Shown: positions 9,224 to 60,600, counted from the whole stretch's first letter. The stretch: DNA of 63,475 nucleotides, filler included, from Reclinomonas americana ATCC 50394 (GCA_048213135.1; 14 parts of 14 records of this genome joined end to end with filler, not necessarily neighbours in it); one strand, 5' to 3'. Program-made: numbers and translations. Notes: generated by a model from the sequence alone, not told the origin.

Positions 9224-9590
9224 CTCATCCTCATCCTCCGAATCAAACTCCTCCTCCGCCCTCTCCTGCCCCGGCAACACCAACAACCGCACCGTCGCCA
9301 ACACCAACTCCATATTCTTCTTCCGCTCCAACCACAAATCCGACTTGCGCCGCCGCGTGCGATCCAGCAAATCGCGATAGCGCAACTGCAGTCGCTCGAA
9401 CACGCCGAGTTTCCTGCACAAAAGGTGAGGAGGAGGACAAGGAGGAGCAAAAGGAGTGGGGTAAAGTGACGCAACTTGTACGGATCGCCAGAGGTACCGA
9501 GGTCCAGCAGCTGCTTCTTGCGTCGCAGGAGATCAAAGTTGGCGCCGGCAATCTCCCGGCGCAGCTTGTCGTCGGTTTTGATGGCCTCCT
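9224..9590 (-). CDS. Internal exons of a hypothetical coiled-coil protein
   Basis: [12 protein letters not shown]...GDPYK joins [16 protein letters not shown]...[11 protein letters not shown] in frame via an intron starting GTTGCGT at 9475. May belong to the same gene as 5733-7730. Confidence 0.45.
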
Positions 9591-9822
9591 GCGCGGGGGG
9601 CAATGCGATGAGAAGCAGAGGAGGGGAGAGGGAAGGGAGGAGGGGGAGGGAAGAGGGGAGGGAAGGGGGGAAGGAGAAGGGGAGGGAAGCGGGGAGGGAA
9701 GCGGGGAAGGAGAAGGGGAGGGAAGCGGGGAGGGAAGCGGGGAAGGAGAAGGGGAGGGAAGCGGGGAGGGAAGGGAGGAGGGGGAGGGAAGAGGGGAAGG
9801 AGAAGGGGAGGGAAGCGGGGAG

Positions 9823-9922
9823 NNNNNNNNNNNNNNNNNNNNNNNNNNNNNNNNNNNNNNNNNNNNTTAATTAATTAANNNNNNNNNNNNNNNNNNNNNN
9901 NNNNNNNNNNNNNNNNNNNNNN
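9823..9922. other. Artificial gap spacer (N44-TTAATTAATTAA-N44). Identical 100-bp spacers start at 13672, 23152, 27163, 29370, 31405, 37524, 40785, 42847, 45320, 52662, 55970 and 61214
   Basis: Constant 100-bp length with a six-frame stop linker in the centre. Confidence 0.98.
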
Positions 9923-9930
9923 TACAGCAC

Positions 9931-10060
9931 CTTCGAGGTTGGGCGCCTGCGTCAGGTTCTCATAGTCACGCTCAAACAGCAGCCCGCCCTTGTAGCCACG
10001 CACAATGCCATCACAGTACGCGTCTTGCGCGTTCCACAGCGTCAACTCACCCCACGACAT
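9931..10060 (-). CDS. ATP6V0D: V-type ATPase V0 subunit d, first exon (remainder in gap)
   Basis: MSWGELTLWNAQDAYCDGIVRGYKGGLLFERDYENLTQAPNLE matches the subunit d N-terminus (FN...GYLEGLVRG.K..L...DY.NL.Q...LED). Donor G|GTGCTG. Confidence 0.85.
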
Positions 10061-56085: not shown

Positions 56086-56143
<58 letters not shown>

Positions 56144-56379
56144 GTCACACTGCCTTGTCTCAGTCTTCCTCTTATCTCTCTCAGTCACACAGCCTCGTCT
56201 CAGTCTTCCTCTTGTCTCTCACTCACACACTGCGTTGCCTCTCACTCACTCTCTCTCTCTCTCTCTCTCTCTCTCAGTCACGCTCATCACACTCGACGAT
56301 TGTGGCCTCGCGCACTGTGCAAGCTGCGGCTGCGGCACTGGTCGAGCTGGACGGCGACTCACAGCAGCAACAACAACAG

Positions 56380-58800
56380 ATGCAGATGCACGAGCAAGGG
56401 GATGAACACGTGGAGCGTCGTCGCAGGCATGATGTGTTTGGCGCGGATCCAGAGCTGGACTCGGACGGTGTGTGTTGTCTCCCTTCTCTCGCTTGTCTGC
56501 TTGCTTCTCTGTCTTCCGTCCTTGTTTCCTTTGCTGAGCTGCCTTCTCTTGCTGTCTCCGTCTCCCTCTCTCCTCCTTCTTTCGTGTCTGCTGCCTCGTG
56601 TCCATCTTCTGTCTTTGTTCTTCCTTATCTGGTGTATGCTTCTCAGTTTCTCACTCACCAGGCTTCCATGTTTCCTCCGTCCTCTACGTTCCACCCTCTC
56701 CCCTCTTCTCTTCGCTCTCTTGCTCATTTCTTCGCCTCTCCCCTCCACCATTCCTTGGCTTATCTCTCTCTCTCTTCCACAGGCGAGGCCGCGAGTGACG
56801 TTCCACTCGCCGATCGCGCCGTATCGCCACCCGTCGTGCTGCCGAGGAGGCACGGCTCGGTGGTGATCATGGGGCGACCGGTGACGCACACGGTGCCGGC
56901 GATGGAGGTGCGCGAGGTGAGTCCATGCGACAAGTGCACGCCGCGCGCCACAAACGAGCCTCACTGTGTCCGTGCTGCTGCAGCATGCTTCGATTGGCAG
57001 CTCGCTCAGCGACCCGTCGTCCATCGATGCCTCGGTGCTGACGTCGGCCAACTCGGCCACACGGCCGGCGATTGAGGAGGGTGGTGTGGATCAGGACGAT
57101 GATGAGGAACCGCTGGAGCCCATGTCGGGCGTGGTGGACATGACGAATGCGGGCGGCAAGTTTGCCGAGCGGGAACTGACGGCGGTGAGCACGCGCCACG
57201 TTTTTCACATGATGATGATGAGCATCTCACCTATTTTTCCTGACACAGACACGAAATGGGCACGGATCGGGTCTGCGGACAACCACCACAACCACGATTG
57301 CTTCCATGCTCACCGGCACATCGTCGGTGGCCACTCGCTTGTACTCGTTGCGTTGCTCACACGCAGGTTGTCTCTCTCTTTACCCGCTCCAGTCACCCTT
57401 GACCCCTCGCACAGCGGTGTAACCTACGACGGAGAGGTGTTGGATATTAGTGCGCTGGGTGTTCGTGAATGGCCGTGTCCACCCGACCAAGTCCGCTGTG
57501 CAAGAGTCTCCGATAGGTGTGCCGGCGGACTCTCTGTGCCTTTCTTCTCGTCTCTCAGTCACTCACTTTTGTGCGCGCCACACTCAGCTCGGGAATGTCG
57601 TTTGCGGACGACGTACCTCACGACCTCTCTGTTCTGCACGCACTGGGCACACGCATTCCTCTGTGTGTGGTGAAGAGGAGGAGACCAATCGAGGGCGGCA
57701 AGAAGGAGGTGTGTCACCTCCTTCCCTCACTCCACCGTCCCAAACACTCAATATTCTTCTCTCTCTCCTGCCAGCGCCCCGTGTTGGAGCTCATGCTGCC
57801 GTATGCGTGGAACGGACAACCGGAAGATGTGGTGTGCTGTCGAATGAAGCGGAACGCGCGTGTGGTGCGCTTCTCCACCAACCCGGAGAAGCTGGAGAAG
57901 CGTCGCAACCCGGCCTACAAGGGCAAGCTGTCGTTTTCGCCACTTGCCGTCGCGGCCGAGTCTGGAGTGGAGACGCCACCGCCGCGCCTGTCGGTTGAGG
58001 GTGCCACAGCTTCGAGCCGCCTTGGTGGAGGCGCGAGCGGCACTCGCCATCTCTCCTCGGACTACCTGCTGGATCTGTCGGGTCTCGGCAGGAAACGCAA
58101 CGCCAGCCTGCCCGACGATGGTCTCATGGCACGAGCGACACTCGTGTCGAGTGGCAGTGTGGGTGTGGCTGGTACGAGTGACACCCTGGCCGTACCGGGC
58201 GCCGGCTCAACTCCCAGTGGCGGCGCGACGCCCCGTGAGAGCAGTCCACGGCCGGGCTCGGCGGATCCATTCGGTTGCTTCACGCTGCACGACGCGCAAG
58301 ATCACGTGCTGCTGACGGGTGTGATTGATCGACAAAAAGGCACCATGACGGTGGAGTTTACGCACCCCGTTCTCACGTGCAACCGATTAGAGCATGGTGA
58401 GTGTGTCTTTTCTCGCGCAACGTGAGTTGTGATCTCATTTTTCCCACTCGCTACAGGCGCTGGTGGACGGTGCCTGACGGGCGAGTTGGGCGCGCATGTG
58501 GGACCACTGCTGAATCTGTCGGTGCGAGTCAGCAAGCGATCAGTGCTGCGCGTGTTCCGTGGTGGTGAGATCATTATCCTCCCTTGTGCCCTCCTTTCCC
58601 TCCACGTGCTCATCATCCCCCCAGCCGACTGGTCCTCGGCCGACACACTGCACGCGTCGTCACGTTCCGCGTCGGCGGCGAGTACCGAAGACCCGTCGAG
58701 CAGCGTGCTCTTGCAACTGGATTACCCTCTGTCTGTGTTTACTGCGTTTGCACTGTGGGCGGCCTTGGAGGCACCACGGTTACAGGCGGCAGACTCATGA
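56380..58800 (+). CDS. Divergent tubby-like (TULP) protein, multi-exon
   Basis: VVCCRMKR...FSTNPEKLEKRRNPAYKGKL resembles tubby IS.DP.DLSR....YIGKL. C-terminal LDYPLSVFTAFALWAALEAPRL resembles tubby DY.YPL.ALQAFAI.LSSF..KL. Confidence 0.5.
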
Positions 58801-58829
58801 TATGTATATACTGCATTGCATTTCATTAC

Positions 58830-60600
58830 TTAGCGAATCATGTTGAGTCCGCGGCGAGAGAGCGTGCCAAAATGCTCAATCAGCTCGTGTTCGCGACGCT
58901 CAAGCGCCTCCTGGTCGCCAACCGCGTCCATCACAAACAACATTCTGTATGCCAATAAGTGAGGAAGAGGAAATAAGAATGAGAAGAATCGCAGAGAGAC
59001 GCAACGAGGAGCGTGTGCCGAGCGCATGACTGCCGAGGGAGGCCAGCACTGCATCGCACAGGCTCGGCAGGCCCGAGCTCCAGCTGTGGTTGCGTGCATT
59101 TCTCAGCGCCCCTCGCGCGTCGCTGAGATGCATGTTCCAGCGCTCGCACGCCGAGTTGCTCGCCAGTCCCACGTACCCCTGATCAGGCTCTGCCTCGTCG
59201 TGCACATCCCACACCACCCAATAGTACACCGCAAACGGGTCGGTCACCGCCGGCATGTCGCTCCACGAGACCGCCGCGTCCACCCGTCCGCGCAAGAAGC
59301 GCACAGCCGCACGAAAGTGCGACGACCGCGTCCACCACAACTCGATCTCCTCGGCCGTCAGCTCGCCCGTCACCTGCCCCCGTCGCGCCAAACTGTGATA
59401 GTGCACGCCCACGGGCGCACTATCATCGCCGCCCACCCCAAACTCAATCGCATGCACCACGCGGAACTCGCGCAGGTCCGGATCAAACACCGGCTCGGCT
59501 CCGTCGACCAGTCGCTCTAGCAGCAACACGCGCTCGCGTCGACGCTCCGCAGCCTGCGCATAGCTCGCCTTGGCGTCCAGTCCCGGTGTCGGAAGGGCGA
59601 GCTCCACCTCGGAAGAAGGCGGTGCAGCAGCAGCCGACGTGGCCAGTGTATGAAACCCGCGACCGCGCCCAGGACCGCGCACCGTGCCTAGCGTCGGTGG
59701 AGGAGGAGGCGCATGCAAGCAGCTGCGCCACGTATGCCCCGGCTGCTTGCACGTTGTGCACAGACGCGGACTTCGTGATCGTTGTCGCGTCTCATCGTCC
59801 GCCTCGCCATCGCGCGGCGGCACACGCGGGGAGGGCGGTCCGAGTCGCCCACTGCGGTCCTCCACAGCCGGGCGCGCAGGGCATGTGCGACTGTTGTGCC
59901 CTGGAAGCTTGCATGTTCGACAAAGGCGCGGACTTGGCGGGCCTCCGCGTCTGCAGACTTCCTGCTCGCCCTCACTGCTGCTGCTGCTCTCGGCCTCCAC
60001 TGGTCGCGCAGGGCATGTGCGACTGTTGTGCCCAGGCTGCTTGCACGTTCTGCACAGTCGCGGACTGGGCGGACCTCCTCGCCTGCTGCCTTCCTGCTCG
60101 CCTTCACTGCTGCTGCTCTCGGCCTCCACTTGCACAGTCCGCGCAGGGCATGTCCGACTGTTGTGTCCAGGCTGCTTGCATGTTCGACAAAGGCGCGGAC
60201 TTGGCGGACCTCCTCGTCTGCCTTCTTGCTCGCCTTCACTGTTGCTGCTGCTCTCGGCCTCCACTGGTCGCGCAGGGCATGTCCGACAGTTGTGTCCAGG
60301 CTGCTTGCAGGTTCTGCAAAGGCGTGGACTGGGCGGACCTGCACGTCGTCTGCCTTCCTGCTCGCCCTCACTGCTGCTGTTGGCCTCCACTGGGCGAGCT
60401 GCACATGTGCGACTGTTGTGCCCAGGCTGCTTGCATGTTCTGCACAGTCGCGGACTATGCCTTCTCCTGTCTTCCTCACTGCTGCTCTCTGCACTACTGC
60501 TGCTGCTACTGTCCGCCTCCTCAACTCGACCGGCACATGTTCGCCGATTGTGCCCCGGTTGCCCACACAAACGACACACGCGGACTCTCACAGTCGCACC
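58830..60600 (-). CDS. 7x CCHC zinc-knuckle plus GIY-YIG endonuclease (intron 59005-58945; upstream exon(s) uncertain)
   Basis: Seven CxxCxxxGHxxxxC motifs; AVYY...YVGLAS...ERWNMH; after a 61-nt phase-2 intron, LERREHELIEHFGTLSRRGLN supplies the conserved E and N. Confidence 0.82.

Follow-up and report, generated by a model that had tools for sequence, protein, structure and literature searches.

Evidence for a frequent, one-base-shifted class of 5' splice sites in a genomic window of Reclinomonas americana

Roca and Krainer reportedly found in 2009 that atypical human 5' splice sites are read by shifted base-pairing with U1 small nuclear RNA (snRNA). According to Tan et al. (2016, PMC4856993), shifted as well as bulged U1 registers are established experimentally for rare human 5' splice sites, and Roy and Bowser (bioRxiv 10.1101/2022.06.08.495308) describe donor consensus sequences that have changed together with the 5' end of U1, namely GUUUGU with ACAAAC in Entamoeba and GUGCGC with ACGUAC in Mastigamoeba. 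For diplonemids, which we compared on account of CA-rich introns, the donor has been reported as (G)/GTATG (PMC12621601). Here we analyse a stretch of 63,475 nucleotides (nt) from Reclinomonas americana ATCC 50394 (GCA_048213135.1), hereafter the window, in which a third of the donors that can be checked by homology carry the familiar U1-complementary block displaced by one base, as in A/GTTGAGT (a slash outside brackets marks the exon-intron boundary). On balance, we think it somewhat probable that these slid sites open real GT-AG introns, removed by the major spliceosome, and make up a second frequent class of donor, at which U1 is shifted by one base and the cut is made at GU. The literature that we searched, supplementary species tables being outside the search, holds no report of a slid donor class that is common or lineage-wide.

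Two donor classes and the last base of the exon

Thirty donors in seven genes of the window are supported by homology. Alignment fixes 21 of them, and nine (26544, 26423, 24977, 29861, 42643, 40520, 12603, 12986 and 48466; grade B) owe their position to inspection by eye, to the frame or to a moderately good alignment, some having been picked for their donor-like look. The slid class, N/GTT[G/T][A/C]GT, accounts for 10 of the 30 donors, and none of its members follows a G, as opposed to 18 of the 20 others (Fisher p = 2.2e-6). Because of the manner in which some grade B donors were picked, the test is also given for the alignment-fixed donors only, among which a G precedes 0/8 slid and 11/13 other donors (p = 2.2e-4). 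The original prediction that donors of the GTTGCGT/GTTGAGT type are frequent and tied to exons not ending in G is hence borne out among the checkable donors. One correction is that an exon with a final base other than G can also be followed by an ordinary donor when position +7 is A: the only two such cases, T/GTTAGTAC of MCM5 and T/GTGAGTAC of DIM1, both carry a +7 A which extends the pairing with U1.

The slid class is sharply defined, with T at +3, G at +6 and T at +7 in all ten cases, and it lacks the +5 G found in 19 of the 20 ordinary donors, the +3 position of which is variable (G14 T4 C1 A1). Counted on both strands, GTTGMGT (M being A or C) occurs 36 times, compared with 21.45 ± 4.25 in 100 dinucleotide shuffles, none of which reaches 36, and GGTGMGT occurs equally often (36, against 23.47 ± 4.68 in such shuffles). 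The combination G/GTTGMGT is present five times in the window, without sign of use in any instance (their surroundings are an apparent exon, antisense strands or sequence that gives no information). Nor is the motif always a donor, since GTTGAGT is found at 48588 within a long intron of the M14 carboxypeptidase gene and at 22581 within an apparent exon. Three donors in the ordinary register combine U at +3 with C at +4, that is, G/GTTCGT at 21064 (-) in MCM5, 29861 (-) in DIM1 and 12986 (+) in the ferric-reductase-like gene, the latter two placed by eye; their slid twin is C/GTTTCGT at 42235.

These observations bear on the simplest alternative, according to which no special register exists and loose, GTNNNGT-like donors together with ordinary exon/intron compensation merely appear as a class, inflated by the small sample. 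Compensation between a G at -1 and intron positions is common in other eukaryotes, and both the variable +3 of the ordinary donors and the sample of only 30 suit such a view; the exchange of a near-invariant +5 G for an invariant +6 G does not, and neither do the Fisher test (p = 2e-6), the enrichment of the 7-mer over the shuffles, or the GTTCGT/GTTTCGT twins, which fit a shift and not looseness. We thus regard loose donors as an improbable explanation. Reading of the codons from the alignments indicates that a G at -1 would alter the amino acid at six of the ten slid donors, and we propose that slid donors are employed at those intron positions at which a final G of the exon is either impossible or simply absent.

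Placement of the junctions and the first intron of Rab1

All 16 sites of the original prediction read GTTG[A/C/T]G on the predicted strand and follow A (12), T (2) or C (2), but never G; the full GTTGNGT is present in 14, the +7 T being absent at 43169 (GTTGCGG) and 52391 (GTTGCGA). Their standing as donors is graded. Seven are fixed by alignment (21185, 19286 and 18995 in MCM5, 37228 and 37432 in the JAMM/MPN gene, 44339 in CWF19L2 and 26544 in Rab1, the last only given the 1-nt exon described below), and one, 12603 in the ferric-reductase-like gene, is supported by a change of frame and the order of domains. Five more (9475, 10836, 22340, 22689 and 59005) start an intron-like unit of the form GT..YAG, 57-74 nt long, with a branch-like motif and a continuing open reading frame (ORF). 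Downstream of 39036 and 43169, where an acceptor was sought, none could be identified, and 52391 is doubtful. Two slid donors, 37070 and 42235 (C/GTTTCGT), come in addition to the predicted list, and the likewise unlisted sites 14730 and 55054 link long ORFs in phase. The protein continuity that had been claimed for MCM5 (HVAE/AIRLF and YDAD/LAGAL), CWF19L2 and the JAMM/MPN protein is restored by profile-guided spliced alignment; the junctions claimed for CWC21 stand as intron-like units (22340, 22689) across which the ORF continues, though not as junctions backed by homology. Taken together, the earlier observation is partly confirmed and its interpretation partly supported.

The alignments were made with a protein-profile-to-DNA aligner that admits any GT/GC..AG intron at a flat penalty, the dinucleotide being its entire information on donors. 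Profiles were built from 40 homologues for MCM5, from the single homologue P0136 for the JAMM/MPN protein, and from 14/15 homologues (>600 residues) for CWF19L2. Eight credible introns emerge in MCM5, three with slid donors, four with donors after G and one with T/GTTAGTAC, and CWF19L2 combines the slid donors A/GTTGCGT (44339) and C/GTTTCGT (42235) with three G/GTGAGT donors. For DIM1, alignments to PDB entries end exon A at residue 58 and start exon B at residue 60 of human Dim1, and the codon split between these exons yields the donor T/GTGAGTAC. In the ferric-reductase-like gene, the reading passes from frame 3 to frame 1 after 12602, with the HPFTVSS motif in frame 1 and both candidate acceptors in phase, and a second donor is G/GTTCGTG at 12986.

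Several junctions proposed by the aligner were left out of the set of 30: in MCM5, the GC donor 21373, which jumps over an insert of low complexity within a single open ORF; in the JAMM/MPN gene, the GC donors 36875 and 38983, the latter with a 1119-nt intron; and in CWF19L2, the low-complexity or poorly aligned sites 44836 (G/GTAGAGG), 43733, 43639, 43551, 43143, 43056, 42740, 42388 and 42673. Furthermore, the CWF19L2 GC donor 40501 was swapped by eye for G/GTGAGTAA at 40520, and Rab1 26528 for 26544 plus the 1-nt exon.

When eight slid junctions were rescored against all alternatives within ±12 nt, the GTT junction was the best GT/GC-AG choice in 8/8 cases, with a margin of at least 10 points in six, a margin of 4.5 at 37070, and no alternative at 42235. 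It might nonetheless be argued that the junctions are misplaced, be it that other acceptors are used, that the fragmented assembly contains errors or that the introns are not of the GT-AG type, so that part of the class arises from the requirement for GT-AG ends. Indeed, homology leaves a freedom of a few bases within which non-GT-AG placements score equally well or slightly better at most junctions, the first Rab1 intron cannot be closed as a single GT-AG intron, and the window consists of 14 pieces joined by spacers. Each of the eight tested junctions, however, has exactly one well-scoring GT-AG solution, which is always the GTT one, the frames close in three independent, well-conserved genes, and the difficulty in Rab1 is solved by fully canonical signals; misplacement as the general explanation therefore appears very remote.

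The eight slid introns of MCM5, JAMM/MPN and CWF19L2 close the reading frame as GT-AG introns, which assigns them to the major type. Consistently, a branch-like YTRAY/CTGAC motif and a pyrimidine stretch precede YAG in all eight MCM5 introns and in Rab1 intron 1a (as read by eye). Introns of the U12 type have the donor /RTATCCTT and a branch of the TCCTTAAC type, and neither motif was seen in any of the ten slid donors or of the introns inspected. An origin from introners or repeats was rejected for the three slid introns of MCM5, which have nothing in common beyond the donor. A codon-usage gene finder with plain GT-AG introns was also tried and abandoned, as it did not reproduce the MCM5 model, and features of intron-likeness (T content, stops, a regular expression for the branch) failed to separate sites. 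Bridging of ORFs of at least 60 codons was observed for 22% of GTTGMGT, 19% of G/GTGMGT and 9.5% of all GT sites, a test that lends weak support as it misses known real donors, e.g., 18995 and 44339.

The first intron of Rab1 deserves separate consideration. The original prediction of a direct LLLI/GDSG junction fails here, since the two ends differ in phase, which is 0 for the donor that follows LLLI but 1 for the only nearby acceptor, where GC GAC is left; the aligner did not close the intron, and a single intron of 375 nt would need GT..CA or TT..AG ends. If, instead, a single G at 26424 is taken as an exon, intron 1 (26170-26544) becomes a pair of complete GT-AG introns, 120 and 254 nt long, and in the upstream one CAG is preceded by a CTGAC branch and a pyrimidine tract. 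With this exon the conserved product is read exactly as in 13 Rab1 homologues, and without it the product is unreadable. Rab1 seems to contain a single-nucleotide exon, to judge from reading frame and splice signals. A transcript-supported exon of this size has been described in Arabidopsis (PMC4674806); like the exon proposed here it is flanked by two complete introns, the difference being that the report on Arabidopsis provides evidence from transcripts, whereas the Rab1 exon is deduced from the genomic signals just named.

Register of U1 at the slid donors

In order to compare the classes in coordinates of U1, ordinary donors were aligned from -1 to +6 and slid donors from +1 to +7. In this frame both classes read G-[G/U]-U-G-[A/C]-G-U, in agreement with the prediction that the 7-mer is retained and moved by one base. 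The columns agree well between slid and ordinary donors (G 9/10 vs 14/20, A/C 10/10 vs 19/20, G 10/10 vs 19/20 and T 10/10 vs 13/20), and a G lies opposite C9 of U1 in 28 of the 30 donors. Likewise, position -1 of the slid donors (A5 T3 C2 G0) resembles position -2 of the ordinary ones (A8 C7 G3 T2) and not their -1 (G18 T2), albeit in small numbers. If pairing is counted ungapped against the human U1 5' end AUACUUACCUG (as given in PMC4856993), which may not be that of the host, the +1-shifted register pairs better in all ten slid donors (4.0-8.5 vs 2.5-4.5) and the canonical register in all 20 others. Since the human 5' end already pairs better when shifted, an ordinary U1 may suffice for the slid class, and the unusual U1/U6 recognition of the original prediction stays hypothetical.

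We thus suggest the following mechanism, in which the contacts of U1 and other snRNAs at slid donors are inferred. Both classes would share the motif G-[G/U]-U-G-[A/C]-G-U and be cut before its first GU. With G as its second letter, the motif would have its first GU begin at that letter, and the exon would end in G (G/GUGMGU); with U, the first GU would begin one base earlier and the exon be one base shorter (N/GUUGMGU). U1 would occupy the same place on the motif in both, with the slid +1 G opposite C9, the +2 U forming a single mismatch opposite C8, and positions +3 to +7 pairing in the manner usual for +2 to +6. It would then be left to the later steps involving U6, U5 and Prp8, rather than to the register of U1, to set the cut at GU.

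Alternatively, U1 could keep to its ordinary register and pair with the +1 G and the +2 U, the additional U, at +3 or +2, being bulged out; this corresponds to the bulge +2/+3 register. GUUGAGU less one U is indeed GUGAGU, Tan et al. (2016, PMC4856993) tabulate 68 human donors of this kind, and the counts of base pairs come near to those of the shifted register. A bulged U, however, keeps -1 opposite C9 and thus predicts a G there, as found in ordinary donors (18/20); such a G is seen in none of the ten slid donors, and none of the five occurrences of G/GTTGMGT looks used. Hence, the evidence favours the shifted register rather than a bulged U, to which we assign a low probability.

Another route to the same donors would be a second, variant U1 snRNA (e.g., with A for C at position 8), fully complementary to the slid A/GUUGAGU, so that one U1 would serve each class. 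The sharp definition of the class, as if perfectly matched, speaks in favour of such a variant, as do the U1 5' ends that have co-changed with the donor consensus in Entamoeba and Mastigamoeba and the standard plus modified U1 candidates of Physarum (bioRxiv 10.1101/2022.06.08.495308). On the other hand, a standard U1 (ACUUACCU end) already explains the class with one mismatch, and the same source lists Thecamonas and Mamiellales as preferring C at +4 and yet keeping the standard U1. In the window itself, neither U1 nor any other snRNA gene was found with Rfam at the gathering thresholds, and the 16 weak matches at E<=1 include no snRNA. We consider a variant U1 unlikely, if less so than a bulge.

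The shifted register of an ordinary U1 thus remains our preferred reading, and a number of points weigh against it. The sample comprises one window with 30 donors in seven genes, nine of them placed by eye or frame; the junctions are deduced from homology, frame and sequence signals; and the slid donor of Rab1 requires an unusual 1-nt exon. Pairing was scored with a human 5' end that the host U1 may not match, and since the +6 G and the +7 T formed part of the definition of the class, some of the advantage of the shifted register follows from that definition. The shifted register could also accommodate a G at -1 (as a G-U wobble with U10); if -1 resembles the ordinary -2 in behaviour (G in 3/20), the lack of such a G in all ten slid donors is no more than a mild surprise. 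Finally, counts of base pairs do not allow a bulged U to be told from a U-C mismatch on energetic terms.

It is tempting to go one step further and to speculate, tentatively, that two phased donor codes coexist in this genome, with about a third of the introns being cut one base 5' of the position usual for the U1 register, either by an ordinary U1 with systematic uncoupling of register and cleavage or by a dedicated second U1, and with coding constraint on the last exon base deciding between the two. If this reading were true, it would represent the first natural system which routinely separates the choice of the 5' cleavage site from U1 pairing, and in which coding constraint on the last base of the exon decides which code an intron uses.

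The window, its genes and related systems

The window is eukaryotic, has ~56% G+C and short introns, and consists of 14 pieces linked via 13 spacers, each of the form N44-TTAATTAATTAA-N44 (e.g., 9823-9922, 29370-29469 and 42847-42946); these spacers are artificial and contain stops in all frames, and the CWF19L2, JAMM/MPN and DIM1 genes cross them in the correct order. Pfam scans of open frames and homologue searches identified genes for MCM5, Rab1, DIM1, a JAMM/MPN protein, CWF19L2 and a ferric-reductase-like protein, and furthermore genes for M14 carboxypeptidase, CWC21, YL1, HROB, ankyrin and zinc-knuckle proteins. The coordinates of the donors are collected in Table 1.

Table 1. Slid donors, candidate slid donors and related features of the window. 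Paired figures are the scores of the junction and of the next-best junction; 'listed' and 'unlisted' refer to the sites of the original prediction.
Feature	Coordinates	Strand	Details
Slid donor T/GTTGAGT, MCM5, phase 0	21179..21185	-	76-nt intron to 21110; YDAD/LAGAL; 28.8 vs 16.5
Slid donor A/GTTGAGT, MCM5, phase 2	19280..19286	-	80-nt intron to 19207; 84.5 vs 69.5; bridges 174- and 188-codon ORFs
Slid donor A/GTTGCGT, MCM5, phase 0	18989..18995	-	75-nt intron to 18921; HVAE/AIRLF ungapped; 70.4 vs 59.4
Slid donor T/GTTGCGT, Rab1 exon 1, phase 0	26538..26544	-	120-nt intron to 26425; frame closes only via 1-nt exon 26424
Slid donor T/GTTGCGT, JAMM/MPN, phase 2, unlisted	37070..37076	+	67-nt intron; P0136 alignment; 60.5 vs 56.0
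Slid donor A/GTTGAGT, JAMM/MPN, phase 0	37228..37234	+	99-nt intron; SVHE/VIGFLGG vs PINE/IIGHLGG; 97.0 vs 75.0
Slid donor C/GTTGCGT, JAMM/MPN, phase 0	37432..37438	+	intron crosses N spacer to 38645; EMARDS/VEAYV vs ELRPDS/VEGKP; 35.0 vs 24.0
Slid donor A/GTTGCGT, CWF19L2, phase 0	44333..44339	-	62-nt intron; MERWG/SLDIL vs AERYG/SMEEF; 34.6 vs 24.7
Slid donor variant C/GTTTCGT, CWF19L2, phase 1	42229..42235	-	71-nt intron; sole GT/GC-AG junction within ±12 nt
Slid donor A/GTTGCGT, ferric-reductase-like, phase 0	12603..12609	+	61-nt or 112-nt intron; bridges 167- and 273-codon ORFs
Candidate slid donor A/GTTGCGT, unnamed gene without homologue	9469..9475	-	pyrimidine-rich 62-nt intron, CTCAC and CAG; 115- and 138-codon ORFs joined in phase
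Candidate slid donor A/GTTGCGT, 5' of YL1-domain exon, unlisted	14730..14736	+	86-nt intron; 221- and 320-codon ORFs, phase 0; YL1 Pfam match downstream
Candidate slid donor A/GTTGAGT after cwf21 domain	22340..22346	+	67-nt intron; cwf21 Pfam match upstream; 62- and 248-codon ORFs joined
Candidate donor A/GTTGTGT, cwf21-domain gene	22689..22695	+	74-nt intron; K/E/R-rich ORF into S/R-rich ORF; low complexity
Candidate slid donor A/GTTGCGT, low-complexity gene	10836..10842	+	57-nt intron; CTGAC branch, CAG at 57 nt
Candidate slid donor C/GTTGCGT after 561-codon zinc-knuckle ORF	58999..59005	-	61-nt pyrimidine-rich intron, CTCAC and CAG
Candidate slid donor A/GTTGCGT, unlisted	55048..55054	-	71-nt intron; 101- and 179-codon ORFs joined
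Listed A/GTTGCGT, no acceptor identified	39036..39042	+	long CT-rich tract follows
Listed A/GTTGCGG, no acceptor identified	43163..43169	-	runs into purine-rich and (GT)n sequence, then N spacer
Listed A/GTTGCGA, doubtful	52385..52391	-	purine-rich downstream, unlike verified introns; +7 T absent
Proposed 1-nt exon G between CACAG/ and /GTGCGT, Rab1	26424..26424	-	reading frame and splice signals
MCM5 span	18642..21410	-	other donors G/GTTCGTG 21064, G/GTGCGG 20784, G/GTGCGT 20401, G/GTGCGC 20188, T/GTTAGTAC 19784
Rab1 span	24978..26592	-	other donors, all after G: 26423, 26125, 25849, 25707, 25599, 25488, 25169, 24977

As to the relationships of these genes, the spliced MCM5 protein attains at most 53% identity over its whole length among 120 homologues, with 74% for the best single, most conserved exon, and the best matches of CWF19L2 are from animals (39-44% identity). 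For the JAMM/MPN protein (38427-39035, +), P0136 is the single detectable longer homologue at E<=1e-5 in a collection of 5.8 billion proteins, and the family appears to be very sparsely sampled. Long (GT)n/(CA)n and (GA)n microsatellites are located within introns (e.g., 26340-26530, 42950-43060 and 25880-26110) and account for the few long introns. An intron of the M14 carboxypeptidase gene exceeding 1 kb harbours a tandem repeat (49173-49714, +, its start probably at ~48650) with a period of 166 nt, 3.1 copies and 82% match. Two intronless ORFs, 696-5048 (-) and 32381-36733 (+), each exactly 1451 codons long and mutually 76% identical, encode a P-loop region (GNSGAGKTT) followed by ~14 WD40 repeats, and stand out amid their intron-dense surroundings.

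Yeast and human have supplied most of what is known about the setting of the exact 5' cut once U1 has passed the site on to U6 and U5, and in both of them register-shifted sites are rarities that have been studied singly. If the slid class extended across the genome, thousands of natural shifted sites would exist beside ordinary ones in the same genes, providing a ready data set and test bed to address which contacts set the cut, how far mismatches with U1 are tolerated, and how coding constraint affects the choice of a donor. In such a genome, a gene finder trained with a single donor matrix would get about a third of the exon ends wrong, and each error would shift the frame.

When compared with described systems, the donors of Entamoeba and Mastigamoeba are alike in that a whole genome departs from GUAAGU, and the U at +3 of Entamoeba and the C at +4 of Mastigamoeba, Thecamonas and Mamiellales, as reported by Roy and Bowser, also occur among the donors of this window. 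In Entamoeba and Mastigamoeba, however, a single replaced consensus is described, which is read in the ordinary register, whereas here two phased classes are found within the same genes. The human bulged and asymmetric-loop registers (Tan et al. 2016, PMC4856993) share with the slid class the extra nucleotide between GU and a GAGU-like block, and differ in that the human bulge +2/+3 register calls for G at -1, found here in 0/10. The closest resemblance is to the shifted human sites, which likewise have (i) a +1 G opposite C9 of U1, (ii) pairs moved by one position, with G at +6 and not at +5, and (iii) a cut at GU. Those sites, as far as they are described, are rare exceptions established experimentally, whereas the slid class is recognised from sequence, makes up 10 of 30 donors, follows a tight GTTG(A/C)GT consensus and is tied to exon ends other than G. 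Hence, the shifted register itself is already known from rare human sites, and what would be new is a slid class that is common within one genome.

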